Source: Eukaryota sp. GEM-RC1 (Eukaryota). From it: a stretch of DNA of 64,000 bases. Below the pieces are notes generated by a model that saw only the letters and a list, made by a program, of their open reading frames with translations, was not told the DNA's origin and made no database searches. The stretch covers positions 1,488,001 through 1,552,000 of the forward strand of contig JAUFOQ010000005.1 in NCBI GenBank assembly GCA_040285855.1, written 5' to 3'. A program made the position numbers and the translations under genes. Below, piece by piece: positions 120 through 57,489 of this stretch (position 1 is the stretch's first letter; each line of letters opens with the position of its first letter).

Positions 120-1973
120 ATGGTCACCCCTCGCCCTGATTCTTTGTTGCAAAGGAGTCGTTCAATTTCTCCCGTTACCTCGTCTGTGATGTCTAACTCT
201 GACGAACTGTCTGTATTGTCTTCAACCACACATCCTCCCTCTAAACGTGTCCATGTTCAGCAGTCTTTGTTGATTCTGATACATCTACACTTGCTGAGAC
301 GTCTTCTCAACCGTACTCTTAAAAATAATCATGATCGAACTAATCCTCAACTGACTGCTTTGAAAACAGCATTACCTGCATTCTTTGGACAAGTTGGCTA
401 CGTAAGTAATCACTTCCTTGATTCTTCATTCCAAGCAGTTAAAGTCTATTTTCATTTACACACCTTTCATGCTGATCACAAACACTTTCCCAGACTAATT
501 TCACTTGCTTCTTTCTTTGGAGTAGATCTACAATCTGTTTTCTTGCACATTCCCGAAAGCTTAGAAATTGAGAAATTTCTAAATTATTCTGGTATAATTA
601 CAGGATTGAGAATCGAACTAAGGGAACCCTCTGATTTAGAGTTTCTAAACAATTCTTCTTCTTTATTTCCACGTCTTAAGCAGCTAGAAGTAGAAGTGCC
701 GAGACAACGCTCCTCTGTTTCTATGTTATTGATTGAAGCTTTGAACACCATTACTACAGTTACAAGTGTTGATCTAACTGGAAACTCTATTGGAGATGAA
801 GGTGCCAGAGCTTTGGCAGAGGCGTTGAAAGTTAATACTTCAGTTACAAGTATTAATCTACGGGGCAACTCTATTGGAGATGAAGGTGCCAGAGTTATGG
901 CAGATGCGTTGAAAGTGAATGCTTCATTTACAAGTGTTAATCTGAGTTACAACTCTATTGGAGATGAAGGTGCCAGAGTTATGGCAGATGCGTTGAAAGT
1001 TAATACTTCAGTTACAAGTATTGATCTGGGTGGAAACTCCATTGGAGCTGAAGGTGCCGAAGCTTTGGCAGATGCATTGAAAGTGAATGCTTCAGTTACA
1101 AGTGTTAATCTGAGTTACAACTCTATTGGAGATGAAGGTGCCAGAGTTATGGCAGATGCGTTGAAAGTTAATACTTCAGTTACAAGTGTTAATCTGAGTT
1201 ACAACTCTATTGGAGATGAAGGTGCCAGAGCTTTGGCAGAGGCGTTGAAAGTGAATTCTTCAGTTACAAGTATTGATCTGGGTGGAAACTCTATTGGAGA
1301 TGAAGGTGCCAGAGCTTTGGCAGAGGCGTTGAAAGTGAATTCTTCAGTTACAAGTATTGATCTGGGTGGAAACTCTATTGGAGATGAAGGTGCCAGAGCT
1401 TTTGCAGAGGCGTTGAAAGTCAATGATTCAGTTACCAATATTCATCTGCATGGCAACTCTATTGGAGCTGAAGGTGCCAGAGCTTTGGCAGATGCATTGA
1501 AAGTCAATACTTCAGTTACAAGTGTTAATCTGGGTGGAAACTCTATTGGAGATGAAGGTGCCAGTGCTTTGGCAGAGGCGTTGAAAGTCAATACTTCAGT
1601 TACAAGTATTAATTTAGGTAAAAACTCTATTGGAGATGAAGGTGCCAGAGCTTTGGCAGAGGCCTTGAAAGTTAATGGTTCAGTTACAAGTATTTGTCTG
1701 TGGAAAAACTCTATTGGAGATGAAGGTGCCAGAGCTTTGGCAGAGGCATTGAAAGTGAATGCTTCAGTTACAAGTGTTAATCTGCACTACAACTGTATTG
1801 GAGCTGAAGGTGCCAGAGCTTTGGCAGATGCATTGAAAGTCAATACTTCAGTTACAAGTGTTAATCTGAGTTACAACTCTATTGGAGATGAAGGTGCCAG
1901 AGCTTTGGCAGAGGCGTTGAAAGTTGATCATAGAGTTAAAATACAGGGTGTAGGTCAACTTAATAGATTGTAA
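120..1973 (+). CDS. RNI-like LRR protein, family copy 1 (conserved N-terminal domain + 14 x 28-aa repeats)
   Basis: Repeats SVTSxxLxxNSIGDEGARALAEALKVN in 84-bp units; first ATG at 120 (MVTPRP) matches the paralog start MVTPHS at 23515; the ORF track starts at a TTG. Confidence 0.9.
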   Translation: MVTPRPDSLLQRSRSISPVTSSVMSNSDELSVLSSTTHPPSKRVHVQQSLLILIHLHLLRRLLNRTLKNNHDRTNPQLTALKTALPAFFGQVGYVSNHFLDSSFQAVKVYFHLHTFHADHKHFPRLISLASFFGVDLQSVFLHIPESLEIEKFLNYSGIITGLRIELREPSDLEFLNNSSSLFPRLKQLEVEVPRQRSSVSMLLIEALNTITTVTSVDLTGNSIGDEGARALAEALKVNTSVTSINLRGNSIGDEGARVMADALKVNASFTSVNLSYNSIGDEGARVMADALKVNTSVTSIDLGGNSIGAEGAEALADALKVNASVTSVNLSYNSIGDEGARVMADALKVNTSVTSVNLSYNSIGDEGARALAEALKVNSSVTSIDLGGNSIGDEGARALAEALKVNSSVTSIDLGGNSIGDEGARAFAEALKVNDSVTNIHLHGNSIGAEGARALADALKVNTSVTSVNLGGNSIGDEGASALAEALKVNTSVTSINLGKNSIGDEGARALAEALKVNGSVTSICLWKNSIGDEGARALAEALKVNASVTSVNLHYNCIGAEGARALADALKVNTSVTSVNLSYNSIGDEGARALAEALKVDHRVKIQGVGQLNRL

Positions 1974-2738
1974 TTACTAATTAGTTTTCGATACAAATTG
2001 ATTCTCGCTGTCCTTCACTATATCTAAGTGTAGTGTATGTGAGGCATTGCATTTCTGACTGGATTTTTGATGACTTCTGTTTTCTCATAGTAAGACGAAT
2101 GTTTCTTGGTTATAGTCATTTCTTTACTTATCAATCATTTTAACTGAAGTTTTCAAATTTGATATCCGTAAAACCACATATTTCTGTTACATTAAGACGA
2201 ACCCAACAGCCAGACGAAAAAAGCCATACAATATTTTGGAAATCAGATACAATTTAAATCTATTTTCCTCATAAATTTCAAATCTTTCAAATCCTTAACT
2301 ACTAATATCATTTACTGCATCAACGCTTTTAAACGTGGTGTTGGCTAAGATGTAGATAGTTAGTTAGTTTCCTCGCTGCTGCTGACGTGGCCTGCTGACA
2401 TGGCCACCAAGTCTTAAACAATTGTTGTTAATGTGCTGTACAGATCTGCATTTCTTCACTTTCGGTCAATGTTGGCCTAGGTTGCGAAAGTACGTTATCT
2501 CAATCAATCATTAGTGATGAAGATTTTGAATTAAATTATTGATTGCTGACAGTGGAAAAATTATAGTACTTACTATTTGTTTTTAGCATTCTTTAATATT
2601 AAAAAAACTAAAATTTGATACCATTGAAACATCACCCATCACTAACAACAAAGCTTTGTCCTCATAAAAGGAACTCACCGTTAATAATGCTTAGGAGATG
2701 ATTTTGACTACATACACCGCACACAACTCTCTCTCCTC

Positions 2739-4364
2739 ATGTCCCGTTTTATCAAAATACAGCATGGACAATATCGTCCTTTAAAAGATAAAGTGGGTTT
2801 ACGTCACACAAAAAGCAAGAAGAACAATCGTCCCTTCTATTCTATTTACAGATTTCCAAGACAGAACAATAGTTGGACTATTGATGAAGAAAAATACTGT
2901 TTTCAGCACAATCATGAGCTAATAGAAGAAAGCTGATATGGCTTCATTTCGTTCAAAACAAATGGATGGTGAACTAAAGTCCTTGGTTTGTGCTATGTTG
3001 AATGCTTTGATTCCTGCTTCAGACATACTGAGCTGTATTCAGCAGAAATTTCCTGAATCATCTTTAGTGCTGAAAGATATTCATAACTTGCGAACTGAAA
3101 CTTATAAGGTGGATCCCTTTATTTGTCAAACCGTGGATGAATTAATTAAAAATTTCCATGGAAAGAATTGTTTTGTTGAAGTTAATTGGAATACCCTTAG
3201 CCACATTACTCATTTAATGTCCCTCAGTTTCTCTTTATCAGGAATACGGAACGGTGCTTCAAATGGATTGGACCTACAAGACTAACAGCCACAAATTGTC
3301 CCTTATGGCTTTTGTAGGTAGAATTTTTCACATTGGTTTTGCATTTCTAACTTCTGAATCATCTTTGGACTTCAATTGGTGCTTAAAACGATTTGAAGAA
3401 GTTACTCAATTAGTACCAGAATTATTTCTTACTGACCGAGACCTGGCACTCGTTAATGACATTCAATTTATTTTCCCAGAAGAAAATGGAACTCACCATT
3501 TGCTCTGTGTCTGGCACATATTTCAAAAGTGGTAAAGAATTGTGCAAAATATTTTAAGGGTCGCAATAAGGCACAATTTGAAGATTTTTTGGTGAGTTTA
3601 AAGCAATTGATTGGTATTAAAAGACCAGCAGAATATCCAGAAGCAGAGAGAATGTTCAAGGAAAAATTTAGTTTTGTCCCCAAGACTGTTAAATACCTGG
3701 ACGATGAGTGGCTGAAGTATATGGAAAAGTTTGTCCACTGTTTCTTTCAAGGAAAAATTAACTTAGGACAAGTTACAACATCCAGAGAATCTGGCCATCA
3801 AGCTGTGAAAAGAAGATTGAGGCTGAGTGTAGCCCCAATGAATGTTGTAATTGCCAAAGTTTCACAACACTTGAACCTCCAAATGCAAGCATTCAGAATT
3901 AATGGGGAAAGAGAGAAGAATTCTACTTGAACAGAGTTTCTCTCAAGTGAGTGGAAAGAGTTATTCCAACAAGTAAACAGAAAGATTTCAGGCAACGTAC
4001 TGAGGAAAGTACTTGCAGTTGCTAAGAACTGCAAGTACTTTCATCATTACATTGAGTGAAACAATTTTATTAGACGAGTGTTTAGATGAATGTTTAAAAC
4101 ACGAAGGGCTTCCCTTGTTGCAAAGAGATTCATTCATTAATTGAAACAGGGGAATCTTTGAATCAAGAACACTTCCTTCGACAATGGTCAGGGCAAAACA
4201 ACCCACAAGAAGAAGAGACTGAGAAACTGATTATCGAAATGATTGACCAAGTTAATGGAGAAGACGAAGAGTTCAAAAGAATGTTTCTTCAACATGCAAA
4301 GTGTTTCATGGAAGAGCAAAAGGGATTATTAAAGGGACCAGAGTGTAAGCGCAAGAGGGGATAA
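2739..4364 (+). mobile_element. Degenerate Mutator/MULE (FAR1-like) transposase
   Basis: Frameshifted ORFs with MULE motifs MDWTYKTN, IGFAFLTSES, FLTDRDLAL, HLLCVWHI. Confidence 0.85.
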
Positions 4365-4542
4365 GATTTCTTTAGTTAATAACTCAATATGTTTTTGATA
4401 TGGAATAGGGAAGAATGATGCAAGAGAAATCAGCTTGAGACACAACATAAACAAGAATGTCGTGTGGAGACTCTCCCACTGGAGAGTAAAATGTCGTGTG
4501 GTGTATATAGTCTATCCCGAAAGACCACACTTTGATCTATCA

Positions 4543-6396
4543 ATGGTCACCCCTCGCCCTGATTCTTTGTTGCAAAGGAGTCGTTCAATTTCTCCCGTTA
4601 CCTCGTCTGTGATGTCTAACTCTGACGAACTGTCTGTATTGTCTTCAACCACACATCCTCCCTCTAAACGTGTCCATGTTCAGCAGTCTTTGTTGATTCT
4701 GATACATCTACACTTGCTGAGACGTCTTCTCAACCGTACTCTTAAAAATAATCATGATCGAACTAATCCTCAACTGACTGCTTTGAAAACAGCATTACCT
4801 GCATTCTTTGGACAAGTTGGCTACGTAAGTAATCACTTCCTTGATTCTTCATTCCAAGCAGTTAAAGTCTATTTTCATTTACACACCTTTCATGCTGATC
4901 ACAAACACTTTCCCAGACTAATTTCACTTGCTTCTTTCTTTGGAGTAGATCTACAATCTGTTTTCTTGCACATTCCCGAAAGCTTAGAAATTGAGAAATT
5001 TCTAAATTATTCTGGTATAATTACAGGATTGAGAATCGAACTAAGGGAACCCTCTGATTTAGAGTTTCTAAACAATTCTTCTTCTTTATTTCCACGTCTT
5101 AAGCAGCTAGAAGTAGAAGTGCCGAGACAACGCTCCTCTGTTTCTATGTTATTGATTGAAGCTTTGAACACCATTACTACAGTTACAAGTGTTGATCTAA
5201 CTGGAAACTCTATTGGAGATGAAGGTGCCAGAGCTTTGGCAGAGGCGTTGAAAGTTAATACTTCAGTTACAAGTATTAATCTACGGGGCAACTCTATTGG
5301 AGATGAAGGTGCCAGAGTTATGGCAGATGCGTTGAAAGTGAATGCTTCATTTACAAGTGTTAATCTGAGTTACAACTCTATTGGAGATGAAGGTGCCAGA
5401 GTTATGGCAGATGCGTTGAAAGTTAATACTTCAGTTACAAGTATTGATCTGGGTGGAAACTCCATTGGAGCTGAAGGTGCCGAAGCTTTGGCAGATGCAT
5501 TGAAAGTGAATGCTTCAGTTACAAGTGTTAATCTGAGTTACAACTCTATTGGAGATGAAGGTGCCAGAGTTATGGCAGATGCGTTGAAAGTTAATACTTC
5601 AGTTACAAGTGTTAATCTGAGTTACAACTCTATTGGAGATGAAGGTGCTAGAGCTTTGGCAGAGGCGTTGAAAGTGAATTCTTCAGTTACAAGTATTGAT
5701 CTGGGTGGAAACTCTATTGGAGATGAAGGTGCCAGAGCTTTTGCAGAGGCGTTGAAAGTCAATGATTCAGTTACAAGTATTGATCTGGGTGGAAACTCTA
5801 TTGGAGATGAAGGTGCCAGAGCTTTTGCAGAGGCGTTGAAAGTCAATGATTCAGTTACCAATATTCATCTGCATGGCAACTCTATTGGAGCTGAAGGTGC
5901 CAGAGCTTTGGCAGATGCATTGAAAGTCAATACTTCAGTTACAAGTGTTAATCTGGGTGGAAACTCTATTGGAGATGAAGGTGCCAGTGCTTTGGCAGAG
6001 GCGTTGAAAGTCAATACTTCAGTTACAAGTATTAATTTAGGTAAAAACTCTATTGGAGATGAAGGTGCCAGAGCTTTGGCAGAGGCCTTGAAAGTTAATG
6101 GTTCAGTTACAAGTATTTGTCTGTGGAAAAACTCTATTGGAGATGAAGGTGCCAGAGCTTTGGCAGAGGCATTGAAAGTGAATGCTTCAGTTACAAGTGT
6201 TAATCTGCACTACAACTGTATTGGAGCTGAAGGTGCCAGAGCTTTGGCAGATGCATTGAAAGTCAATACTTCAGTTACAAGTGTTAATCTGAGTTACAAC
6301 TCTATTGGAGATGAAGGTGCCAGAGCTTTGGCAGAGGCGTTGAAAGTTGATCATAGAGTTAAAATACAGGGTGTAGGTCAACTTAATAGATTGTAA
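4543..6396 (+). CDS. RNI-like LRR protein, family copy 2 (14 repeats)
   Basis: Tandem duplicate of 120-1973; protein differs only in one module (ALAE..NSS vs AFAE..NDS). Confidence 0.9.
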   Translation: MVTPRPDSLLQRSRSISPVTSSVMSNSDELSVLSSTTHPPSKRVHVQQSLLILIHLHLLRRLLNRTLKNNHDRTNPQLTALKTALPAFFGQVGYVSNHFLDSSFQAVKVYFHLHTFHADHKHFPRLISLASFFGVDLQSVFLHIPESLEIEKFLNYSGIITGLRIELREPSDLEFLNNSSSLFPRLKQLEVEVPRQRSSVSMLLIEALNTITTVTSVDLTGNSIGDEGARALAEALKVNTSVTSINLRGNSIGDEGARVMADALKVNASFTSVNLSYNSIGDEGARVMADALKVNTSVTSIDLGGNSIGAEGAEALADALKVNASVTSVNLSYNSIGDEGARVMADALKVNTSVTSVNLSYNSIGDEGARALAEALKVNSSVTSIDLGGNSIGDEGARAFAEALKVNDSVTSIDLGGNSIGDEGARAFAEALKVNDSVTNIHLHGNSIGAEGARALADALKVNTSVTSVNLGGNSIGDEGASALAEALKVNTSVTSINLGKNSIGDEGARALAEALKVNGSVTSICLWKNSIGDEGARALAEALKVNASVTSVNLHYNCIGAEGARALADALKVNTSVTSVNLSYNSIGDEGARALAEALKVDHRVKIQGVGQLNRL

Positions 6397-9759: not shown

Positions 9760-10877
9760 ATGGCCTCTATTTATCAAGGATTGGCCAATGCTAACACAGT
9801 AGAGCCGCTTCTGAACTGTCTGGAGGATTCTGAGGATAACGGGCGTCCTATAACTTCGATAAAGCTCTCATCTACCACAATCTCTTCTCTGTCCAGAACT
9901 CCATTATCTGACACTCATATATCTCCCATTGTTGAGCTTGTACTTACATACAAACCCCTTCTCGCTTCATTGTCTCTGCTTGATCTAGCATACAACAACA
10001 TCACATCCACATCTCTTCCTGAGTTAGCGAATCTTCTATCATCTTCCTCGATATCTACTCTAATCCTCTCTTCCAATCTAATCACTGATTCTTGGTCACC
10101 ACTGTTCTCTTCACTCCCATCTTCCAATCTCTCTACTCTCAACCTTTCTAACAACATCATCCCCTCAACTGATGCTTCTCTCTTGGCCACCGTTCACCCC
10201 AATACCCGTTTAACCTCTCTCAACCTTTCCAATACTGGTCTCTCTGATCCTGATCTTTTGACCTTTTCTTTTACTTGTCTAATGCTAATAAGATTCAAGA
10301 ACTCCTATTGGATTCCCCGGATTCCTTTTCAATGGATTCAGTGTTGCATCAACTCGCGGTGTTTCTAAAGTCTAACACGTGTCTGGAAAACTTTTCAGTG
10401 TCAAAACTTCATTTTATTGATTTGACGCTGTCTATTGTATTGTTTCCTGCGTTTGAATATTCAACAGAATTGAAAATTTTAAATTTGTCAAAAATTACGC
10501 TCGGAGTGGATTCGATTCGTGTGTTGTCCAATTTACTTGCAAATCATGTTACTTCTTTGGAGAGCTTGTCTCTAGCTTCATGTGGTCTTACGGACTCTTG
10601 TGGACTTATTCTAGCAGAAGGTTTATTCGAAAATGAAAATTTAAAATATTTGGACCTTACTCGTAATTCTCTTCATTCAACTGGATTGATTGCTATTGGT
10701 GAATCTTTGAAATTTCATGCTCAAAATTTTAAATTTGAGCTTCTTGTTCAGGGAAATTTGCTTTCAGAGGAATTTGCTCAGTTTTTTTCTCGTTTTGTGG
10801 ATAAGTCGCTGTTAGATATGGATATTGGTTTTAGAAAACATATGGATTCGTCTATAATTGAATTTTTTCACATCTAG
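9760..10877 (+). CDS. RNI-like LRR protein unrelated to the 84-bp family (one apparent frameshift near 10270)
   Basis: LxxLDLAYNNI, LNLSNTGL, LSLASCGL, LDLTRNSL motifs over two overlapping ORFs; junction at a T run. Confidence 0.75.
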
Positions 10878-16124: not shown

Positions 16125-16920
16125 CTCCCTTCAACGCCTCTCTCAAAGCTCTGGCCTCTTCATCTCCAATAGAGTTTCCATCTAGATCAACAGTTGTAAC
16201 TGAAGTATTGGTTTTCAACGCCTCAATCAATAACATAGAAATAGAGGTGCGTTGTGTCGCCACTTCTACTTCTAGCTGCTTAAGACGTGGAAATAAAGCA
16301 GAAGAATTGTTTAGAAACTGTCAATCAGAGGGTTCCCTTATGTCGTCTCCTTCAGTCCAGTCTTGAAAGAAAAGCTACTCAGCTCTGATCCTGGAGTGAA
16401 CTTCCCCCAACTAGCTTCTGTTGTTCCCGATTCCGCAATCCTGTAATTATACCAGAATAATTAGGAAATGTCTCAATTTCAAAGGTTCCGCTAGGGTGCA
16501 AGAAAACAGATTGTAGATCTACTCCAAAGAAAGAAGCAAGTGAAATTAGTTTGGGCAGGTGTTCAAGATCAGTATGAACGGTTTGTTATTGAAAATAGAA
16601 TTAAACTGCTTGGAATGAAAAATCAAGGAAGTTATTACTTACATAGCCAACTTGTTCAAAGAATGTAGGTAACGCTGTTTTCAAACCATCGAGTTGACTA
16701 ATAGTTCCAAAAGGATATTGTTGTAGAGTACGCTTAAGTCTCAGCAAGTGAAGATGGATAAGACTCAACAAAGTCTGCTGAACGTGGACACGTTAAGAGG
16801 GAGAATGTGAAGATGAAGACAGTATCGGCAGTTCGTCACAGTTAGCCATCACATGAGAGAGACAGGGAAGGGATGAACTACTCCTTTTCAACAGAGGTTC
16901 AGGGCGAGGTGAGAGCATTG
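16125..16920 (-). pseudogene. LRR-family pseudogene (N-terminal domain + first repeat), interrupted
   Basis: Nucleotide homology to 22900-23500 and 46600-47295; contains stops/indels and a ~90-bp foreign insert. Confidence 0.85.
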
Positions 16921-16934
16921 GGCTTTCTCTGTTG

Positions 16935-19230
16935 TGTTTATATCCAGAATTTACTTTTACCTTCCCCTATAAACATATGTTCAACTCGCACACTAATACT
17001 AGTTTCCACAGAAGTAAAGTAAACAATTATAATTGTGACCTCAACCTTGTCACTGCCGAGGATGGAAGGTGAGGGAACACTAGAAGTTACTTCAAAAATT
17101 ACCAAGACGACAATCAAGAACAAATGGTCTCACAAACATTCTATATGTTTCAAAGCCATAAAAGAATTGATCGCCAACTCCATGTCTCTCGACCTACCTC
17201 AGCCGGATGAAGCCCTAATCATCTCCACAGACTCAAGCGAATACGCTGTGTCGGGCGTCATTTGGGGACAACTGATTCCATCTAATCTATTGCCAGCCCC
17301 CAATTTCCAAGATCTCAAACTTGCACCAGTCTCGTTTATTCCAAGACCCTTACGAGTAGCCAAAAAAATGGCCGATAAATCAAAAAGAATTGTACACCAG
17401 ACTATTGTTGCCACCCTCACTCAACCTAATATATCCTATCTTTTACTAAATCGAACACTAAAACTGTACTGCGACCACAAAAACATAGCGTATCTTCTCG
17501 CCGCTCCCGAAAAATCTAGAATAGTCAAACGCTGGTTACCAACGCTCTGCGCCTTAGATTTCGAGGTGTACCATGTGGATGGAGAATCCAACCTATTTGC
17601 CGATCTCCTGTCTCGTTTAAACCTGAAGAAGCAACCTGAAGCTGTCGTGGCGAAGTCCACTAAAAATGAATCTCAGTCATGGCCGAATGCAGGATTCATG
17701 AGTGACTTGGTGTTAGGGCCGTCCCAGGTCCCATACCTCGCGATCTCCCCTGCCAGGCGAGTCAAGCTTTGCACTGCTGAGTTGGTGGTCAAGTCATGTC
17801 AGCCGATGGCTGATACTGAAGGTGATCGAGACACTGTCCGCATTTCCAAATTAACCCCAGCTATCATCGAGGAAGATAAGTTCCTCCCCCGTTTAATGCG
17901 TGGTTGGGATGGTGTCGTTATCGACCACTGGCTTGCTTCCGATCTCTATTTGCTATGCTGTGAGCAATGATTAACTTGTTTATCTTCCTTGGACGATTTC
18001 ACTGGACGATTCCCCCTTCGACATTTCCTCCTACGAAGAACATGACCAAGATGCTTAAACATTCAGACCCCATGTAGTTAGCTGCTCCGCAGATCTTCTC
18101 TCCCGACTCTGAAATCATTGATTGCGAACAATAGCGAGCGCCAATGAGCTTCCTGACTCCTCTCCGTTACCACACTCTCTTGACACCATACCAAAAAAAA
18201 GTCTCACCCCCTTTCGTGACCACTTTAGACCCCCAGAAGACCGTTTTTTGGAGGCGACGCCTCCAATGAGCTCAGAAGATCGCCTGATCCTCTCTTCTAC
18301 GCACTTAGTCCTTCGCTTTTTCTTTCAACATTAAAAAGCCTCAAAGAATCGAGAGCTGACTGGATGTCAAAACTGCAACCTGGCCAAATGTCCAACGAAG
18401 AAGAAGAATTCACAGGTCTTCAGGACAAACTCACCGAAGAAGGTCAAGTGAGCCTGGAAGAGAAGTACATCCTTTATCTCTTCCATGGAAACATCACTAT
18501 GTCTCGTAACCTTAGAAGTGAAGTGCTTCTCAACATACATGGCCTGCCTTACTGTGGCCATCTCAACTTAGCTCTTAGCACTAAAGCCCTCGAATACTCA
18601 GACTATTGGTGGCCTGAAGCCAAAGTCGACCTAGTGAATCACTTAGAAAGCTGTGCTTCATGTCAGAAGAATGCGCCAGTCCCTAAGTCTCGTGAAACTG
18701 TTCCCTCAACCGGCAACTTAATCGCCAATCATCTCTTCGACAGTTTACATGTGAACACTATTGGTCCACTACCTAAGAATATACAAGGCAACATATACGT
18801 AGTATTCTTTGTCGACTCCTTTTCCAGATTCACGGTTTTAGTTCCCTTAGCTAAATTGAATGCTACTGCAGTAGCATCAGCCCTACTGGAAAAAGTATGT
18901 TCAGTATTTGGTGTCCTAGCAGCTATACACTCCGATAATTCTCCTGATACGCCAACCATATCTTTGAAGAACTGTGCGACTTCTTAAATATTTCAATAAC
19001 AACCTCAATCCCCCACTTCCAACAATCTCACCAATCTAGCTGAATGCAGAAACCGCGACGTCCTTTTTACTTTACGAAAAGTGCTCGCGGATTTTAATGA
19101 CTACTACAACTGGTCCGGCTACTTGCCGATGACGCAACTTCTCATCAACTGCCCGAAATGTCGCCGAACGGGTTTTTCCTCCGTTCGAAGCGATCTTTGG
19201 GACCGAATCGACCATCAATTCACAAATCCC
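16935..19230 (+). mobile_element. Degenerate, internally deleted Gypsy-like retrotransposon (RNase H + integrase); possible ~91-bp 5' LTR at 16935-17025
   Basis: ISTDSSEYAVSGVIW, YCDHKN, NLFADLLSR; integrase HGLPYCGH...CASCQK, FVDSFSRF, IHSDNS; TGTTTA...TAAACA-bounded segment at the start (unpaired, tentative). Confidence 0.8.
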
Positions 19231-19299: not shown

Positions 19300-20213
19300 G
19301 TCCAGGTCAACAGGTCGGTTGTACATAATTCGAGATGAAATATCGCTAATGTGTAATTCGTACCGTTTAGAATCTTTTCTAGAAACATTGCTGAGTGATT
19401 TGAATTCGACTAACAATAATATTGAAGTTTATGGAAAGAGTTGCTCTGACAGTATGTTTTTTTTGGCGAAATACTACTAAGTAGTTTAACAATTGTTGTC
19501 GAAAATATTTCTGCGGATACTTGCAATCGTTAATAAACGATTTGCTGTGAATGATGAACAGTTTAATTGAAATTGAGGAATCCAACTTCTTTAATCTGTG
19601 ATGACGAACCCACCAAACAAGCGTCCCTGTGCTTTTTTCTCTTTTTATTGATGTTGAAAACGGTGTATTTTGTTTTTCACCAAAAAGTTCTACTCAAATA
19701 ACTGAAGACCAAATCTCATCTTTTAAATGTTTTATGAATTCGTTTTCTATTAAAGACCTTACTCTTAAGAGATGTAATTTTTCTGCTGACTCAATCTCTT
19801 CTTTGAGTGATTTGATTAGGGTCAATATGTTGTTGACCACCGTTGACTTTAGTTTCATTGGAAAGTCGAAAGAAAATTCATTTTATTGTATTGGTGACCC
19901 CATTGGTTCCAATCAGCTAACTGATGACGATTTTCTACAGTTAATCATTGCAATTCAGGCCAATACTCGATTAAAGACAATCAATCTCAGTAGTAACTCT
20001 ATTGGTCTTAATAGACTTTTAACTGTCTTTGAGTTGATTTTATCAAACCAATTAACACCAAATATTCAAATTTGTCCTCATTTTATTGATACTTCCCTCG
20101 GATTAAATAGATATCGAAATGATGTTGAAAGTATTGATGTAAAATGGCTGGTTTGGTCCCAAAGCCATGAAATTGTGACAAGAATTAGGCGGCGGGGTAA
20201 AACAGTATTGTGA
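19300..20213 (+). pseudogene. Fragment of a different LRR-containing gene
   Basis: LKTINLSSNSIG and IKDLTLKRCNF motifs; fragmented ORFs. Confidence 0.55.
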
Positions 20214-21840: not shown

Positions 21841-23515
21841 TTAAAGTCTAAGATTAACTTTCAACACCTCTGCCAAATCTCTAGTACCTTCATCTCCAAT
21901 AGAGTTGTTATACAGATTAACACTTGTAACTGAATCATTCACTTTCAACGCCTCTGCTAAAGCTCTGGCACCTTCAGCTCCAATGGAGTTGGATCTCAGA
22001 TCAATACTGGTAACAGAATCATTCACTTTCAACGCCTCTGCTAAAGCTCTGGCACCGTCAGCTCCAATGGAATTTCCACCCAGATCAATACTCGTAACTG
22101 AAACATTAACTTTCAAGGCCTCAGCCAAAGCTCTGGCACCTTCATCTCCAATAGAGTTTCTACTTAGATCAACACTTGTAACTGAAACATTAACTTTCAA
22201 GGCCTCAGCCAAAGCTCTGGCACCTTCATCTCCAATAGAGTTTCCACGTAGAACAATTCTGGTAACTGCAGCATTTACTTTCAACGCCTCTGCCAAAGCT
22301 CTGGCACCTTCATCTCCAATAGAGTTGTCATACAGATCAACATTGGTAACTGAAACATTAACTTTCAACGCCTCTGCCAAAGCTCTGGCACCTTCAGCTC
22401 CAATAGAGTTGTGACTAAGATTAACACTAGTAACTGAAGCATTCACTTTCAACGCCTCTGCCAAAGCTCTGGCACCTTCATCTTCAATAGAGTTGTAACT
22501 CAGATTAACACTTGTTACTGAAGCATTCACTTTCAATGCATCTGCCAAAACTCTGGCACCGTTAGCTCCAATAGAGTTGGAATTTAGATCAATACTCGTA
22601 ACTGAATCATTCACTTTCAACGCCTCTGCTAAAGCTCTGGCACCGTCAGCTCCAATAGAGGTAAAACACAGATTAAAACTTGAAACTGAAGCATTCAGTT
22701 TCAACGCCTCTGCTAAAGCTCTGGCACCGTCAGCTCCAATAGAGTTTCCACCCAGATCAATACTTGTAACTGAAGCATTCAGTTTCAACGCCTCTGCTAA
22801 AGCTCTGGCACCGTTAGCTCCAATATAGTTTCCACCCAGATCAATACTTGTAACTGAAGCATTCACTTTCAACGCATCTGCCAAAGCTCTAGCACCTTTC
22901 GGTCCAATAGAGTTGGAATTTAGATTAACACTTGTAACTGTAGTATTGGTTTTCAACGCTTCAATCAATAACATAGAAATAGAGGCGTTTCGTCTCGCCA
23001 CTTTTACTTCTAGCTGCTTAAGACGTGGAAATAAAGAAGAAGAATTGTTTAGAAATTCTAAATTAGAAGGTTCCCTTAGTTCGATTCTCAATCCTGTAAT
23101 TATACCAGAATAATTAAGAAATTTCTCAATTTCAAAGGTTCCGGGAATGTACAAGAAAACAGATTGTAGATCTGCTCCAAAAGAAAGAAGCAAGTGAAAT
23201 TAGTTTGGGAAGGTGTTCAAGATCAGTATGAAAGATGTGTAATTGAAAATAGACTTTAACTGCTTGGAATGAAGAATCAAGGAAGTGATTACTTACATAA
23301 CCAACTTGTCCAAAGAATGCAGGTAATGATGTTTTCATAGCAGTGAGTTGAGGATTAGTTCGATCATCAATATTTTCGAGAGTAAGGTTGAGAAGACGTC
23401 TCAGCAAGTGGAGATGGATCAGAATCAACAAAGTCTGCTGCACATGGACACGTTTAGAGGGAGGATGTGTGGATGAAGACAATACCAACACAGGTTCAGA
23501 ATGAGGTGTGACCAT
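21841..23515 (-). CDS. RNI-like LRR protein, family copy 3 (13 repeats; one 1-nt insertion near 23180)
   Basis: Same N-terminal domain and 28-aa repeats; split by an extra A in CAAAAGAAAG vs CAAAGAAAG of paralogs (error or pseudogene). Confidence 0.85.
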
Positions 23516-23826
23516 TCTAGATTGATGGATCAAGAAATGAGAACTTTCGTTCTCTCAAACTTACTATATGTCTATCATCCATAACTAGACTTGACAATAT
23601 CTGGTAGAATCCATTTCGCTTGCACTTCCATAATAGAGTTCCACCACTTCATTTCTTAAAATCGCTTCCCTTTTACCTTTCTCGTTTACTTCACGATTAA
23701 ACCACTTTTGTTTTTCCTTCACATTACCATTGGAGTAAGTACTACTTTTGATTACCAACAAACTACGCACTACTTAAGAGATTTAATGATTCGCATCTGT
23801 TACACCTTTAACTCTGATAAGTACTC

Positions 23827-24020
23827 GTGTGTTGCCTTTGTAAGATTTTGCATCAGGGTCAAGGAGTGTTTTCCCCATATCAATATGGTATTAACACCAT
23901 TGATGGAGCTTCTATGGCTGCCCTGTCATCTGACGTTTTCTTCAATGATCTTGAAAATAATTGCATTTTCGATTTGGATTACAAGAATGTTTCTAATTCT
24001 GTAACACGATCTGCCATTTT
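23827..24020 (+). mobile_element. Non-LTR reverse transcriptase relic
   Basis: PYQYGINTIDGA...DLDYKNVSNSVTRSAI resembles non-LTR RT motifs (QxG..GA; DxxNAFNSVxR); homologous copy at 47610-47930. Confidence 0.6.
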
Positions 24021-24590
24021 TAAGATCGAACCCCTAATTTTTAAGATCAAAGTAGGACTTTAAATGTACCCCATCTCCTACGGATCTTGGGGTGGGAGTG
24101 AGTGCTTCAGTAGCAATTCTTATTGAGTCTAGGTGTATTACATTTTTACAGTATTTCATTTGTTCTATTTTATGTGACCAAAAGACGCTAAAAGATTTGA
24201 CTTTCATTAATGCCAAAATTTTGAGTATTCATTTGATTAATAGGGACAAGTACCTTAATGTGTAGGCGCCAGGGATTTTTGAAGTTGTCCATTTTTGAGA
24301 ACTAAACTGCAGTAAAGTAAAGCGCTTCAAGTACTTTACGCTTGTGCTTTTACGTTTAGGGGTATCACGGTTTACATGTTAGAACGAAGGGACAACTGAT
24401 CGAGAAATGGTGGATTGTGATCAATGATAAAAGGATGAAAGATCAGCTTGAAATATATATTGTGAAAATAATATGCTGCTGCTGCAAGTGCTTTGGTATC
24501 TTACGATGGATTAAAACCTAACGGTAGGAGTTCTATTCTGAGATAGTCAAAAAAATGACAAATGTATTACATAGGCAATGAAGAGTTAGG

Positions 24591-27385: not shown

Positions 27386-29127
27386 CTAATCACTTTTGAT
27401 TGAGCTAAAAAGCCTGTTAACAAATACATAAGCTGACAACCATGCAAGAGCCCCAAATACTAAAAACAAAGCAAAGCAACCAAGAAAAGTATAACCCATG
27501 TAAAAGAGAAACTGGAATCCACCAACCATTTCAGAAGTAAAGAAATAAAAGAAAGAATAAATAAACACATAGACAGCAAGCATACCGCCCATGAAAAGGA
27601 ATTTGTCCACCATCGATAATCACCAAAACTCAATTGGAAATAGGTCAAAATCAACGTTGTACACACGACAACAATGGCTAATGAGAACACAATCACCATC
27701 AAAACCCAATAGAGTTGATACGTATTGTTAGACCAAATTGAAGATAAAACAAATGACAACTCTAAAAAGATTGTTGAAAAGGGAGAAAGCCAGCCAGTGC
27801 TGCAAAAGCCATCCTACTTCTAAACCAAGGCTGAACAGGGATATCGGCTGGGAAAAGAGAAACTTTGACTGGAGGTTCAACTTGTTTGGAGAATCTTCTG
27901 GCGACAAGTCCAGAAGCAACTGATAAAGGAAATGAAATGAAAACAAATAAAATCAATAGATATAATATAGATCCAAGTGGTAATGCATGAGTATTCTGAG
28001 TAACATTTGATATAAATGACAAAATCAGAATTGTTAACAAGGCAGGTAATGAGTACAACAACGACAACACAACTAAGTTAAACGCAAAGTCTTTCCCACC
28101 TAATCTCTTGTAAAACCACCCACTTGTACTACCCCCAATGACTGACGATAGAACAAAGAGACTGATGAGTAGAGAGATTGAATGGCCACCATAGGGAGCT
28201 ACGGTGGAACTAAAGAAGACTTGGAAGAAGAGGAGTAAGCCAAGGGTAGCAGCGAGTTGAACTCCTAATGCTACGGAAGCAATCAAAAATGATAGCTTCT
28301 TTGGAGGTCGGAACACGTCAGCAGACACTTGCTTCCATCCAACATTATCAAAGTCGTCAAGAGTCAAGGTAGTGGGGAGGGCTTCTGACGACTTCTTGTA
28401 CCGTGTAACATCCTTCTTTAAGACATTGAACAGGACTAGGAACATTACCACCACTCCAAGGATAACGATACCAATAGAGTTGAGGATAGAGAACCAGTGG
28501 ATGGAGGGAAGATCGAGAGGCAAGAGTTCCATAGACGGAGAAACGGTCATCGTAGGAGAGAGAAGTAGGAACCCACGTGGTTTCATAGGTGAATGGTATG
28601 GCTACGGGTTCTTCCGTGGGGTATAGGGGGAAGGATTTGTCCTCGTAAACAGTAACATTGATTCCAACTAAATGATGACCATTGTAGTAGGCAAAGAAGT
28701 GATAGTGGTTGAAGAGGTAAGCAATGCCGTTGCCGTTGTTGAAGTAGCCTACTGGGCCCCAGAGAGGGAGGTCGTCAAGGAGCATTTCAAACCAAAACTC
28801 GTTTAGTACGGCCTTTGTGAACTTTTTGATGCCTTTGGGTGAGACAACATGGGATTCAGAACACATGGCGCGAGTTGGGATGTTTGTTTTGAACTTGAAT
28901 TGAAGTGGTGTAGACACGAAGCGGTCGCCTTGAAGAAGCTCACCAAGAGACATTAATTTAGTTTGAAGTTTGTCTGGACGGCAGTAAGGTAAGGAATAGA
29001 ATGAATATCGTTGAGAAGGACTGTGTACCGGTCCAACAACATTGTAGTAGAAAGGGACGACTTGCCCATCTTCGTAGGCTAGTGTCACTACTAATACCAG
29101 TAGAAAGATGCTGAGTTTTGTGAACAT
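27386..29127 (-). CDS. Transmembrane 9 superfamily (nonaspanin/EMP70) protein
   Basis: Signal peptide, YSLPYCRP, SLGELLQGDR, DDLPLWG, IHWFSILNS, GWKQVSADVFRPP, DYRWW, C-terminal IKSD; three small indels. Confidence 0.95.
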
Positions 29128-30639: not shown

Positions 30640-30871
30640 GTCTTTGATTGGCGCAAAGAAATACCATAGTTTGTGAACATTGTTCAAGTTAAGCATCAAA
30701 GTTACACTTTGAAGAATCAAGCAAGTGATTACTAACATTGCAAACTTGTCCCAAGAATGCAGATAAAATTGCTCTGAAAACAGAGAGTTGATGACTGATT
30801 TGAAAAGAATTCTTTTCAAGAGCACTCTTCAGTAGACGAATCAGAATCAACAAAGACGCGAACATCAACAT
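30640..30871 (-). pseudogene. Diverged fragment of the LRR-family N-terminal domain
   Basis: SLLILIRLL...AILSAFLGQVCNVSNHLLDSS vs SLLILIHLHLL...TALPAFFGQVGYVSNHFLDSS. Confidence 0.75.
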
Positions 30872-31332: not shown

Positions 31333-34300
31333 CTAATCATGTTGTTGATTGAGTATTTCAGAAAGCGTTTCTTTTGTCCGGGAAAGAATGTCCCAAACCA
31401 TCTGATTAATTGTACTCATATTATTAATAGTGGATCTGTGGTACCTACCCCCATATACGGAACGAAATAAACAACAGTGAGTGACCGAACTATTGATGAT
31501 TAAAGCAAGTGCCTGGGCCCCTTCAGAAAATACTAAGTTCGGTGTACTACGAGTCATAGCAAAATTTCCAAGACCGATCTTAGACACTGTTAGATTAACC
31601 TTCAAAGCCTCTGCAATTGCAGAAACACCCATGCTTTTAATAAAACAATCTGTTAACTCAATATTAGAAACTGAAGAATTAACCTTCAAAGCGTCCGCAA
31701 TTGCACCAGCACCTAGACATTTGCTGGGGTTGAAACTCATATCAATATAAGAAATAGAAGAATTAACCTTCAAAGTCTCTGCCATTGCATTCGCGCCTCC
31801 GGGACCTATATGATTTTTACATAGAAAAATTTTAGAAATAGAAGAATTAACCTTCAAAGTCTCTGCGATTGCAGTCACTCCTTCAGTACCTATACCAGTG
31901 TTCCATAAAGAAATTGTAGACACAGAAGAATTAACCTTCAAAGCATCAGCAAGAAATCGATCTCCTTCAACCCCAATGTCGTTGAAACCTAGATCGAGCT
32001 CAGAAAGCGTAGTATTGACCTTCAAAGCGTCTGCAATCACTTTAGCCTTTTCATCATTGTTTTGATGATGGTCAAAACCTATATTACCCATGTTAAGAGT
32101 AAGTTTTGCCAGATCCAAAAACGATTTGTTCGAACTTTCATCATCCGTCTCATCTATATCTGATTCCGTCTCAAAGCATTCATCATCAGAGCTTGTACTG
32201 GTATTGTCTTGGAAACACATTCTGGACAGTTTTACTGTTTCTGCATAGTTTTTCTTAAAAACATACACCATTTATTGGAGAGATCTCGTTCCCAGCAAGG
32301 ACCATCACTTGATGATGTGACGTGATGACGTGATGAACTTTGCAACAATAAGTTCAAAATGTTGATAGACTTCAGCTAATGCAAATAGTTTAGTCCAGAC
32401 TGTTACAAGAGACTTCATTTTAGAAGTCAGAGAAATTTGAAAAGGTTGAACTAAGTGTTTGGTTGGCGATGAAGTAGAGTGAAGAAATATCGAAGTTACA
32501 AATTGAATACTTGCTAAAACACATGCTCGGACTTTGGCCTTATGACGCCGCATTTCTAGACGTCGTTCAGAAGTTGAGCTATTAACAACCCCAGTTTGAT
32601 AACGATGAACACATGATTCTGGCGGAATAGTAACATCAAATTTTTTTTGGAAATGAGAATGACATTGTTCGATCAAAATGTTAAAAAATCCATCAAATTG
32701 TTCTGGCAACTTAAGACAAAGTGCGAAGTAAATTTCAATTAATGTAGGCTCCAGATATGCCTTATCTAAAAGATATGAACCAGTATTTCTACGGAACTTC
32801 TCAAGATCTTCATTAGAAAATGATCTCGAACAAGAATGACGTCCAATGAAGATGTTCACAATATTAGAAAAGACTTGGTTTTTGTTAGACGGACAGATGC
32901 TTTGTAATAACTCAATAGTTTCCTTGAATGCAACGGTAGACGTACAACGAGACAATTCAACTTTCATTACATTGAGTTTTGTACTCAAATCAAACAAGTA
33001 ATGGTTTAATTCTTTTAATTGACTGTCGCGTTGATTTAAAGATTCTAAAGACTCTTTGAATAAGCAGGGGGAAAGTAAAGCGGAAAGTCGTGGATCCTCT
33101 GTTAGCTTTGAGAGAAGATTTAATACTTCAATACGGTTCACACAGGATTCAAAGTCAAAATTCAACACTTCTTTTCAACATCCTGTACCGTCCATAATTC
33201 GGTCTCTTTCCATGACTTAACAAGACAATTTATAAGAAAGATGTCATAAGAAGGGTGTAAATCATTTTTCAACGTTTTAAAAATTGTGGGAACAACACAC
33301 GGATATATGAAAGTATTTGTCACATCATTTAAATCTATGATCAATGAAAAATTTTGGGTAAAAAAATCGCAATGTAAAAGTTGACCTCCCCGGTAACTTG
33401 AACAAAAGTGCTTAAAAGTGCTTAAGCACCACAAAAACCACTCATCAGGAATGACTTGCGCATTTTGAATCCTCGAAAAGACCTTCATTGACCAAGTTTA
33501 TAGGAATTCACGAAGGTAATTCTGGTCAAATAATGGAAAGAGACGATTATAAATTTGGATGACATTTTGCTCCTGAATAACGATTTTACCGAAAACTTCA
33601 GTCAACTCATAGTAATTCCCGATATAAACTGATTCATTAATAGATAAAAGCAAACACCGATACAACCAAGAACCATTGACTACATCAAGCAAAAGAGAGA
33701 TAAATGGAAGAGGTAACAGAAAGGGATGTGAAAAATCTCTGATATCGTCTAATAATTTAAAAATTTTTGAATTCTCATTTAAAATATTGAACAGATTTCG
33801 CTCAGAAATAGTTTTCAATAAAAAGAGTATATTTGAGCAGACGTAAGAGACGAAACAAATGCATTACACGTTTCCTTCAGTTTTGTTACTTTAAAATAAA
33901 CTGCCAATTGATAAAAATCAACGACATTACACATACCAAGATCGAATGATTCACCAACAATATACTTGAAAAATGACTCAAAATTTGAAACAGAAACACC
34001 AGTAAACTCTTCACCGTAGGAAAAGTTCCGCTCATTTGAGTCAGCAAAATTTGAACAGAACAGATTTTTAAAATATTCAGAGGAGCATATCAACATCAAA
34101 GAGCTAATGGTTAGAGACTTATCTTTAAAAGAAAGCAAGACATCTTGTTGAACATTTGATCTAATAGTTTGTAAGACTTCTTCAGACTTCATTTGAAGAC
34201 GACGTGACTCAGACAATCCTTGAGATATAATCTTACCAATAGATTGTGTTAAAGAGGTGACTTCAAGAAGAGAGGATATTGTGATGATAATAGTAAAGTT

Positions 34301-34693
34301 ATCAAGGGTAAGTTCGAAAGGCTGTCCGTAACAATAGTCTAATATTCGGAAGAAGATATCAGCATCAGAAGTGATGGACTCTAGTTGAGAGAAGTGTACT
34401 TCATGATAGGAATTGAGCAACTTCTCTTTCAATACGAGACTGAATGAAGAGATGACATCAGAGCGACACGGGTAAGCCTGGCCATGGAAAAATACAAGGC
34501 TGTCAGTGAGAAGCTGATTTTGCTTATTATAAAACAGTTGAGATACTATATCACACGAATTAGAATCAACATTTATATGGTGCAAATTCAGTGGGTTTTC
34601 AGAAAATGAAGTGGTTTCAACGTTGTTCAAGATGTCAGATTGAGGAGCCATGTGAAGATTCCCTCTTGCTTCTGTTGGAAAACTCCTGGTCAT
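31333..34693 (-). CDS. BTB/POZ-domain + C-terminal RNI-like LRR protein (several frameshifts; may be a pseudogene)
   Basis: Two BTB-like segments (VISSFSLVLKEKL..ILDYCYG; LICSSEYFKNLF..F.DSNE) and C-terminal ADALKVNSSVSTISL repeats in five collinear ORFs. Confidence 0.75.
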
Positions 34694-44886: not shown

Positions 44887-47294
44887 TTAAACTCTATGAT
44901 TAACTTTTAACACCTCTGCCAAAGCTCTGGCACCTTCATCTCCAATAGAGTTATACTCCAGATCAATACTTGTTACTGAAGCATTCACTTTCAACGCCTC
45001 TGCCAAAGCTCTGGCACCTTCATCTCCAATAGAGTTGTATCTCAGATCAATACTTGTAACTGAAGTATTAACTTTCAACGCCTCTGCCAAAGCTCTGGCA
45101 CCTTCATCTCCAATAGAGTTGTATCTCAGATCAATACTTGTAACTGAAGTATTAACTTTCAACGCCTCTGCCAAAGCTCTGGCACCTTCATCTCCAATAG
45201 AGTTGTATCTCAGATCAATACTTGTAACTGAAGTATTAACTTTCAACGCCTCTGCCAAAGCTCTAGCACCTTCAGCTCCAATGTGGTTGTGCCTCAGATC
45301 CATACTTGTAACTGAAGCATTAACTTTTAATGCCTCTGCCAAAGCTCTGGCACCTTCAGCTCCAATTGAGTTGCGACTTAGATCAACACTAGTAACTGAA
45401 GCATTAACTTTCAACGCCTCTGCCAAAGCTCTGGCACCTTCATCTTCAATAGAGTTGTAACTCAGATTAACACTTGTTACTGAAGCATTCACTTTCAATG
45501 CATCTACCAAAGCTTCGGCACCTTCAGCTCCAATGGAGTTATCCTCCAGATTAACACTTGTAACTGAAGCATTCACTTTCAACGCCTCTGCCAAAGCTCT
45601 GGCACCTTCAGCTCCAATGGAGTTATCCTCCAGATTAACACTTGTAACTGAAGCATTCACTTTCAACGCCTCTGCCAAAGCTCTGGCACCTTCATCTCCA
45701 ATAGAGTTTTTCCACAGATAAATACTTGTAACTGAAACATTAACTTTTAACGCATCTGCCAAAGCTCTGGCACCTTCATCTCCAATAGAGTTTTCACTTA
45801 GATGAATACTTGTAACTGAAGCATTCACTTTCAACGCCTCTGCCAAAGCTCTGGCACCTTCAGATCCAATAGAGTTATACTCCAGATCAATACTTGTTAC
45901 TGAAGCATTCACTTTCAATGCATCTGCCAAAGCTCTGGCACCTTCAGATCCAATAGAGTTATACTCCAGATCAATACTTGTTACTGAAGCATTCACTTTC
46001 AATGCATCTGCCAAAGCTCTGGCACCTTCAGCTCCAATAGAGTTTCCACCCAGAATAATACTTGTAACTGAAGAATTCACTTTCAATGCATCTGCCAAAG
46101 CTCTGGCACCTTCATCTCCAATAGAGTTGTCAACTATAACAATACTTGTAAGTGAAACATTAATTTTCAACGCCTCTGCCAAAGATCTGGCACCTTCAGC
46201 TCCAAGATAGTTTTCACCTAAATTAACAGTTATAACTGAAGTATTAACTTTCAACGCCTCTGCCAAAGCTCTGGCACCTTCATCTCCAATAGAGTTATGA
46301 ACCAGATTAACACTTGTAACAGAAGCATTAACTTTCAACGCCTCTGCCAAAGCTCTGACACCTTCAGATCCAATAGAGTTATACTCCAGATCAATACTTG
46401 TTACTGAAGCATTCACTTTCAATGCATCTGCCAAAGCTCTGGCACCTTCATCTCCAATAGAGTTATGAACCAGATTAACACTGGTAACAGAAGCATTAAC
46501 TTTCAACGCCTCTGCCAAAGCTCTGGCACCTTCATCTCCAATAGAGTTGTCATCTATAACAATACTTGTAAGTGAAACATTAATTTTCAACGCCTCTGCC
46601 AAAGCCCTAGCACCTTCAGCTCCAATAGAGTTGTTACGTAGATCAATACTTGTAACTGAAGTATTGGTTTTCAACGCTTCAATCAATAACATAAAAACAG
46701 AGGCGTGTTCGGATTTTACTCCTACTTCTAGCTGCTTCAGACGTGGAAATAAAGAAGAAGAATTGTTTAGAAATTCCAAATCAGAGGGTTCCCTTAGTTC
46801 GATTCTCAATCCTGTAATTATACCAGAATAATTAAGAAATTTCTCAATTTCTAAGGTAACATCAGCGTGCAAGAAAACAGATTGTAGATCTGCTCCAAAG
46901 AAAGACGCAAGTGAAATTAGTTTGGGAATGTGTTCAAGAACAGTATGAAAGATGTGTAATTGAAAATAGACTTTAACTGCTTGGAATGAAGAATCAAGGA
47001 AGTGATTACTTACATAACCAACTTGTCCAAAGAATATAGGTAACGCTGTTTTCAAACCAGTGAGTTGAGGATTAGTTCGACCCTGAACAGTTTCGAGAGC
47101 ATGGTTACGAAGACGTCTAAGCAAGTGAAAATGGATGAGAATCAACAAAGTCTGCTGAACATGGACACGTTTAAAGGGAGGATGTGTGGATGAAGACAAT
47201 ACCGACAGTTCGTCACCGTTAGACATCACAGAGGAGAGACTGGAAGAGGATGAACGACTCTTTTCAACAAAGGTTCAGGAAGAGGTGTGAGCAT
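44887..47294 (-). CDS. RNI-like LRR protein, family copy 4 (21 repeats)
   Basis: 780-aa open frame; homologous start MLTPLP at 47294 is separated by a 1-nt deletion; alternative ATG at 47226. Confidence 0.9.
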
Positions 47295-47609
47295 TGATGG
47301 ATCAAGAAATGAGAACTTTCTGCGTTCTCTCAAACTTACTGATGTCTGTCATCCATAACTAGACTTGACAATATCTGGTAGAATCCATTTTACTTGCACT
47401 TCCATAAAAGTGTTACGCATCTTCATTTATCTAAAATCGCTTTCCTTTTACCTTTCTCGTTCATTTCATGATTAAACCACTTTTGTTTTTCCTTCGAATT
47501 ATCATTGGTGGATATACTGTTTTTAATAACAGAAAAACTGCACACTACTTAAGAGATTTAATGATTTGCATTTGTTACACTTGTAACTCTGATATGTGCT
47601 CATATGTGT

Positions 47610-57303: not shown

Positions 57304-57489
57304 GAAAAAGAAGTTGGATGTGAAGAAGATCTGATAAGTAGAAAATGACTCTCGAATTGTGTGTTTACTGTGAATTTCATAACAACTGCTTACTACTAGT
57401 AGTACTCCCAATTATGAAATTCACTCCTGTTTTCACAGGTTGTAAGAGACATATAGCGTCATCTGACAAAGACAATCATGATCTTCATC

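Follow-up and report, generated by a model that had tools for sequence, protein, structure and literature searches.

The 64,000-nucleotide stretch of the Eukaryota sp. GEM-RC1 genome analyzed here (the window) carries four genes, g1 to g4, in which a shared N-terminal region precedes an array of 84-bp leucine-rich repeat (LRR) modules that differ mainly at two adjacent codons. An earlier note on this DNA had read these arrays as a combinatorial intracellular recognition repertoire. The locus raises the questions of (i) whether the variation of the modules reflects selection or drift; (ii) how module sequences are exchanged; (iii) how widely such genes are distributed; and (iv) what the common N-terminal region might do.

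Organization of the window

Features of the window, which is eukaryotic in character with a G+C content of 32–43% and housekeeping genes (EMP70, SAC, MORN, Stealth and BTB), are collected in Table 1.

Table 1. Family genes, parts of g1 and neighboring features in the 64,000-nucleotide window
Feature	Position	Strand	Remarks
g1	120..1973	+	Intronless, 617 aa; ATG at 120 (second ATG at 189)
g1, low-complexity leader	120..230	+	Ser/Pro-rich, from sequence; similar leaders in relatives
g1, three-helix unit	231..458	+	F-box-like (lead), with ~25-aa variable insert between the half-motifs
g1, degenerate LRR units	465..755	+	Four strand-helix units capping the array (DSSP on model)
g1, module array	756..1931	+	14 modules, each 84 bp; codons 6, 8 and 9 vary
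MULE transposase remnant	2704..4423	+	Broken by stops and shifts; between the tandem copies g1 and g2
g2	4543..6396	+	Tandem duplicate of g1; array at 5179–6354, 14 modules
Family pseudogene	16129..16920	-	N-terminal domain, in-frame stops, ~90-bp insertion, one LRR module
LTR-retrotransposon remnants	17035–18987, 37244–40855	+	RT, RNase H, integrase
LRR-like fragment	19629–20213	+
g3	21841..23515	-	13 modules at 21850–22941; one-base frameshift near 23180
Decayed fragment of helical N-terminal unit	30683..30865	-	tblastn E 3.9e-8; HMM
Divergent LRR gene	31333..32271	-	Related 28-aa modules; family N-terminal domain not detected
Protein with two BTB domains	33815–34693	-	E 8.9e-18
g4	44887..47226	-	779 aa; 21 modules at 44896–46659
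Stealth-family protein	49852–50823	-	CR2 E 2.3e-29
TnpB/Fanzor-like ORF	57667–59628	-	Intact, 653 aa; Pfam Cas12f1-like_TNB E 3.2e-6

The tandem copies g1 and g2 differ at 17 of 2,703 nucleotides, five of them within the array; their strings of variable di-residues are identical, and module 7 of g2 has acquired a tail of module-8 sequence. The MULE remnant between them matches Pfam MULE at 3302–3526 (E 1.8e-11). In g3, the frameshift is due to a single additional base in a run of T and is either real or an assembly error; P0045 is the short 5' product of this gene, and four other annotated relatives (P0044, P0046, P0047 and P0048) have the same shifted tail at their ends. Upstream of g4, a further ATG at 47294 misses the reading frame by one base. 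Apparent one-base shifts also split the EMP70 gene, the SAC-domain gene and an unrelated LRR gene (27762–29127, 53642–55092 and 10200–10420), in two of the three cases at a short G or T run, and these splits are probably residual assembly errors. Since housekeeping genes are affected as well, the breaks in family genes may in part be assembly errors too.

Several neighboring sequences are recorded here in their own right. An annotated 81-aa piece of a relative of the TnpB/Fanzor-like ORF, 78% identical to it, stands at the front of the family member P0021, indicating that such elements insert beside family LRR genes; the region around the ORF, 57300–62000, showed no clear terminal inverted repeats. 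One of the LTR-retrotransposon remnants directly adjoins the family pseudogene. By eye, the fragment at 19629–20213, which had no Pfam match, looks similar to the long, divergent stretches of LRRs in distant members such as P0251. BTB adaptors, a domain found twice in one protein of the window, are another class of cullin-ligase receptors that is expanded in some lineages. Upstream of g3 (23486–24021) and g4 (47265–47767), both on the minus strand, lies a common non-coding stretch of ~540 bp with 80% identity, a candidate shared promoter region. Dispersed non-coding repeats of 80–250 bp (7357–8012/61028–61430; 8977–9453/42823–44077; 35020–35100/41017–41097) are possibly small mobile elements.

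Variation is concentrated at two codons of an RI-class module

A six-frame scan identified 14, 14, 13 and 21 in-frame modules in g1 to g4, contiguous and at an exact spacing of 84 bp, which reproduces the 62 repeats counted in the earlier note; its lists of di-residues for copies 1, 3 and 4 agree letter for letter with ours. In the module frame used here, which starts with S-V-T-S, the variable hexamer comprises codons 8–9. As g2 is nearly identical to g1 and adds no independent modules, it was left out of all diversity statistics, leaving 48 non-redundant modules of g1, g3 and g4, or 47 once one identical module had been dropped. Among the 47 distinct modules, nucleotide identity is 89% outside and 41% inside the hexamer, as expected from the nearly fixed frame and variable pair that had been claimed. 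Per-codon entropy, determined for the 48 modules, likewise peaks at position 8 (3.11 bits, 12 residues) and position 9 (2.85 bits, 10 residues), followed by positions 28 (2.34 bits), 6 (1.84 bits) and 14 (1.36 bits), with 21 of the 28 positions at or below 0.73 bits. The variation at positions 28 and 14 is among few residues, mostly small ones.

The modules conform to the 28-residue LxxLxLxxNxL strand-helix repeat of RI-class LRR proteins and are recognized by Pfam LRR_6 (E 3.8e-89 for g1); Foldseek and VIA-align matches of the LRR part are CARMIL, NLRP and tropomodulin, all RI-class. The model includes only two canonical modules, the first two, and in these the strand falls at positions 4–6, with positions 8–9 following. 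In standard LRR geometry, the strand and the positions after it form the concave face and ascending edge. The original proposal that the variable residues sit on the concave face is upheld by the model insofar as they are predicted to lie on the strand and the following loop; the repeats themselves belong to the RI class. The absence of a signal peptide was also supported for g1: in a Kyte-Doolittle scan with 19-residue windows, a crude test, the maximum was 1.57 and the first windows scored 0.43, and neither a hydrophobic N-terminus nor a membrane segment was seen. The C-termini are short and polar.

Short segments are exchanged among modules

Of the earlier interpretation, recombinational shuffling is supported by failures of the four-gamete test, seen for 211 of 351 informative site pairs, and by sequence tracts common to different genes. 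Linkage drops within 30 bp, from an r2 of 0.09 to about 0.02. Pairs of modules from different genes that share a hexamer (n=27) show extra likeness over only ~24 bp, and the modules are mosaics in which the identical flank around a common di-residue extends over ~21–24 bp. Different genes also share exact tracts, of 99 bp between g3 and g4 and of 72 bp between g1 and g4, and module distances are similar within (0.085–0.131) and between genes (0.097–0.122). Whole modules have moved as well: module 6 of g3 and module 15 of g4 differ at one of 78 bases, module 12 of g1 and module 12 of g4 at two bases, and adjacent duplications in g4 have left exact tracts of up to 194 bp.

We infer that the modules undergo concerted evolution: within the conserved frame, unequal crossing-over together with gene conversion over short tracts would relocate variable cassettes of 21–24 bp, selection would retain many cassette alleles, and every ordered array would present a different binding surface.

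The variable codons show an excess of non-synonymous change

In the selection tests, from which codons 27–28 were left out, pairwise pN was 0.67 for codons 8–9, as compared to a pS of 0.18 and a pN of 0.08 for the frame (frame pN/pS 0.47); the ratio of codons 8–9 pN to frame pS was 3.8 (bootstrap 3.4–4.3). In a maximum-likelihood codon model of the 47 modules, omega was 0.45 in the frame, 2.2 at codon 6 (p 0.014) and 4.9 at codons 8–9 (p 1e-12 against 1), the last value rising to 7.9 on a star tree. Neutral coalescent simulations were tuned to the silent diversity of the frame and run with or without recombination, each block of 3, 7 or 26 codons having a tree of its own. None of 1,800 reached a pN of 0.67 or the observed 22 kinds of amino acids, which rules out neutral drift at a uniform rate. 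The lack of any non-synonymous excess, which the earlier note had named as one outcome that would speak against its interpretation, is therefore not what was found.

The strength of this excess depends on the silent rate to which it is compared. Codons 8–9 clearly exceed the silent change of the frame; however, pS inside these codons is also raised (0.51), so the excess within them is modest. A minimum-change count found no excess in codons 8–9 (4.8 non-synonymous and 6.9 synonymous changes per site), and once these codons were given a silent rate of their own, the p values for three trees were 0.04, 0.07 and 0.14. With a shared rate, the fit failed to converge for the cassette tree. Old alleles under selection would fit this pattern, since silent sites of the same codon cannot recombine away from the selected ones. 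Silent third bases beside the hexamer are fixed at codons 4, 6 and 12 and nearly so at codon 10 (46:1), which argues against a broad mutation hotspot, although a strictly codon-limited mutator could still be the source of the hexamer diversity. Selection has likely diversified the modules at two or three codons, whose residues are predicted to form part of the binding surface.

A large family restricted to one lineage

A profile search with the N-terminal region among 1.84 billion proteins detected 182 clusters at 50% identity (E <= 0.001), 150 of which are listed. Of the close relatives, 55 of 56 are named Eukaryota sp. GEM-RC1, the remaining one being the window's own, and 42 of the 56 lie on one single contig; all ten distant relatives sampled are likewise from Eukaryota sp. 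GEM-RC1. This organism is described as a skoliomonad, a free-living, anaerobic, bacterivorous metamonad of soda lakes (PMC11316075).

The 28-aa module is present in 89 of 196 relatives. The 451 modules of the relatives contain 154 different di-residues, in which glycine, tryptophan, glutamic acid, aspartic acid and serine are enriched and proline is absent, and all 66 arrays of at least three modules are distinct. A combinatorial repertoire in the sense of a large family with unique arrays is borne out by these counts. In a tree from which 48 of 198 proteins with fewer than 120 aligned columns were left out, the window genes fall into a young clade that has a support of 1.0 and comprises 34 of 150 sequences; its frames are more uniform, with a within-protein module identity of 0.76 as compared to 0.62–0.63 in the others. 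Other members have the same N-terminus followed by long divergent LRR regions, and many members are truncated or frameshifted. A few carry an extra N-terminal segment that is RRM-like (P0025, P0027, P0183, P0230), SWIM (P0182) or RING-like (P0237), and these may be fusions or gene-model artefacts.

No relatives were confirmed in viral contigs or metagenome contigs, and the full-length proteins of the window had no exact match in the protein collection. We found no description of the family in the literature; the main text of the paper on the skoliomonad genome (PMC11316075) contains neither "leucine" nor "LRR", and its supplements could mention the family. As far as these searches reach, this is a previously undescribed, real and diversifying LRR family, and the large, lineage-restricted and intronless set of proteins that it comprises is likely cytosolic.

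The N-terminal region: an LRR cap and a putative F-box

The uncharacterised N-terminal domain of ~210 aa postulated earlier is indeed shared across members, yet about half of it is a degenerate LRR cap, as its units align with RI-class LRR solenoids (CARMIL in VIA-align: Z 10.5, rmsd 3.5, 134 aligned residues, model range 78–231). AlphaFold2 models divide the domain into the Ser/Pro-rich leader, three helices and the four strand-helix units of this cap. The closest likeness of the helices is to a divergent F-box, which is to be taken as a lead only. The AF2 model of this helical unit (98 residues, 115 sequences; pLDDT 91.9) consists of an extended segment and three helices that start at residues 11, 39 and 60 (11–32, 39–56 and 60–76).

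Three observations point to an F-box. The top ESM Atlas match of g1 is an F-box cluster (0.92; the cluster is 74% F-box-like and 31% LRR_6), as is that of P0023, a member that is 50% apart from g1, at 0.88, where scores below 0.9 count as leads only; the feature overlap was 104–121 of 256, whereas same-family matches typically reach 170. The most conserved columns of the family (L13, G56, S59 and F62) are all in the two half-motifs, between which lies the most variable stretch of the domain. When an F-box profile built from 29 Pfam-confirmed F-boxes (one of 30 loci, L131, having been dropped) was scanned over 156 positions, the best register of its N-half was the predicted one (9.8 versus 5.8 for the next), and the best ordered pair of halves was the predicted pair as well.

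None of the formal tests reached significance. Shuffled sequences did as well in the register test at shares of 0.11 (N-half), 0.29 (C-half) and 0.14 (joint), and hhalign scores against the 29 Pfam-confirmed F-boxes (8–9) were within those of shuffles. Pfam detected an F-box in none of 62 family members at E <= 0.05 and in none of 32 at E <= 1, nor was an F-box among the 25 of 98 Pfam families listed for 115 members. The conserved glutamic acid and phenylalanine positions of the F-box are serine and histidine or asparagine in the family. Structural searches with the helical unit found nothing at E <= 0.001 with Foldseek in the PDB or in BFVD, where the 26th match, an "F-box family protein" with E 4, does not count as evidence; the best VIA-align match was a designed protein (Z 7.2), with no F-box chain among the matches listed. 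Searched against PDB sequences, the N-terminal profile had a single match, attributed to chance, and a scan of viral contigs for the F-box motif found nothing. Weak Pfam matches to HOASN, SpoU, Fiji capsid and Enterotoxin_a (E 0.02) were taken as repeat or chance noise.

An SCF-type function would need a Skp1 partner. No Skp1 match from the skoliomonad lineage was among the 120 of 7,040 matches listed, and in Giardia, which belongs to the sister clade, Skp1 and cullin-1 are reported as not detected (PMC7029713). Skp1 genes were seen in the viral-contig records L001–L005, of which four are 1.8–2.5 Mb and one is 67 kb long, with Pfam confirmation in L001 and L005. In FBXL proteins, as in the family, a helical unit is followed by LRRs (PMC12475580). 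On balance, we consider the helical N-terminus slightly more probably a divergent F-box than something else.

Interpretation and alternatives

The explanation that we favor, and to which we would give an even chance, is a germline recognition repertoire of shuffled and selected LRR modules whose F-box-like N-terminus feeds an SCF ubiquitin ligase. Each gene would encode a cytosolic horseshoe with a concave face made up of an ordered string of variable di-residues, which recombination in the 89%-identical frame would reorder and exchange. The constant N-terminus would couple binding to one common output, most likely SCF-dependent ubiquitination, with the divergent F-box handing bound targets to the ligase. 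The F-box identity, Skp1 binding by the helical unit and a foreign origin of the targets (viral, symbiont or prey-derived proteins), which is suggested by analogy only, are the most tentative elements; family members would then possibly mark foreign proteins for destruction.

A selected repertoire is also compatible with helices that are not an F-box. These could constitute a lineage-specific unit for signalling, oligomerisation or docking, and the proteins could be NOD-less sensors or inhibitors built of LRRs, which, like ribonuclease inhibitor, would act through nothing but binding. Every F-box profile and Pfam test was non-significant, the same N-terminal unit fronts several LRR types, and the LRR fold matches RI-class proteins; however, both Atlas queries rank F-box clusters first, helix starts and conserved columns agree with the F-box register, and no catalytic or death domain was seen, so that we regard this as a possible but rather less probable alternative. 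Mostly functionless expansion, in which a repeat gene is copied along with transposons, its surface codons drift and its frame is homogenised, would account for the pseudogene, the fragments, the MULE and LTR remnants in the window and the recurrent frameshifted gene models. It is made unlikely by the failure of neutral simulations at the frame silent rate to attain the observed diversity, by the frame omega, and by arrays of 13–21 modules that remain stop-free, and some of the breaks are likely assembly errors given the shifts in housekeeping genes of the window.

The sharp 6-bp peak of diversity with its raised silent change, the cassette-sized identity tracts, and the converted module tail that already separates g1 from g2 could instead suggest a programmed, targeted diversifier of VLR- or DGR-like type, working by cassette conversion or codon-limited mutagenesis in vegetative growth. 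A dedicated mechanism that swaps or mutates the 21–24-bp cassettes during growth would yield antibody-like intracellular binders that an atypical F-box links to protein destruction. We consider both the diversifier and this extended version of it very improbable: the ORFs are complete, the window is without free cassettes or templates except for one pseudogene module and one divergent gene, adenines of the frame are fixed while the hexamer varies among all four bases, g1 and g2 carry the same string of di-residues, and selection together with ordinary recombination suffices. Least probable of all are variable surface or secreted antigens or adhesins; LRR surface families do occur in other protists, but g1 is without a hydrophobic signal or membrane segment and the C-termini are short and polar.

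With these genes, repeat-based recognition repertoires that arise by concerted evolution and selection gain an example in a free-living metamonad lineage, here with neither introns nor an NLR core. If the F-box assignment is true, about 200 proteins contain an F-box variant missed by Pfam, and support is gained for the view that protists turn expanded sets of ubiquitin-ligase adaptors against foreign proteins. The 154 di-residues in 451 modules of one frame also constitute a natural library that may serve as a guide to the variation-tolerant positions of RI-type LRRs.

Comparison with known systems

The likeness to NLRs and VLRs that had been suggested for the concave face does not extend to architecture. 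Membership among NLR (STAND) proteins was rejected, as the window genes and scanned relatives have no Pfam match to NACHT or NB-ARC. VLRs of jawless vertebrates are secreted or GPI-anchored and are somatically assembled from cassettes. Combinatorial LRR modules and a variable concave face are common to both systems; in contrast to VLRs, the genes described here are complete, g1 has neither signal peptide nor anchor, the repeats are RI-class and the 64-kb window contains no field of cassettes. Exon-shuffled LRR genes were likewise rejected, the modules being contiguous at 84 bp rather than encoded by one exon per repeat, and so were DGRs, in view of the four bases that vary in the hexamer and the fixed frame adenines; the RT ORF of the window lies apart from the family genes and resembles an LTR-element remnant.

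GALA proteins of Ralstonia contain an F-box. The LRR helix of the GAxALA type is shared with them (PDB 9j7j; profile E 3.4e-43), although they are secreted bacterial effectors and the match covers the LRR part only. Expanded F-box families in nematodes were reportedly described by Thomas in 2006. The family genes share a C-terminal LRR domain with FBXL adaptors, and a conserved N-terminal helical unit combined with a fast-evolving substrate-binding C-terminus is a trait of FBXL and nematode F-box proteins (PMC12475580; PMC8120010), the nematode families being large and positively selected (PMC8120010). Here, however, the F-box is putative and would have an insert of ~25 aa, and diversity arises by 84-bp shuffling rather than by point change in a non-repeat domain.

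The pattern of evolution is closest to that of three other repeat families. In Podospora, the HNWD genes, het-d and het-e carry WD, ANK or TPR repeats on a NACHT or NB-ARC core, and their function in allorecognition has been demonstrated (PMC1805685; PMC4986451). The HNWD genes have near-identical repeats that are exchanged within and between loci, with few codons of the binding face under diversifying selection; the genes of the window share the high repeat conservation with exchange and the small number of diversifying codons (p 0.04–0.14 with their own silent rate), whereas they have LRR repeats, no NOD domain and are known from sequence alone. The LRR-ROCO genes of Ectocarpus, candidate defence receptors, also combine shuffled LRR modules with positively selected residues of the concave face (PMC3341825); their 24-aa repeats are encoded by one exon each and fused to a ROC-COR GTPase, in contrast to the 28-aa repeats found here, which lie in one intronless frame without a GTPase. 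Young LRR genes of Tetrahymena, another bacterivorous protist, resemble the family in their species-specific mass expansion by unequal crossing-over near transposons and in being mostly non-membrane (PMC6564038). They differ in that they are arrays of 90-bp exons with phase-2 introns, under mostly purifying selection, and in that a common F-box-like leader is not described in the available part of that account (PMC6564038). The evolutionary pattern is thus already known from Podospora, Ectocarpus and Tetrahymena; the lineage in which it is found here is new.
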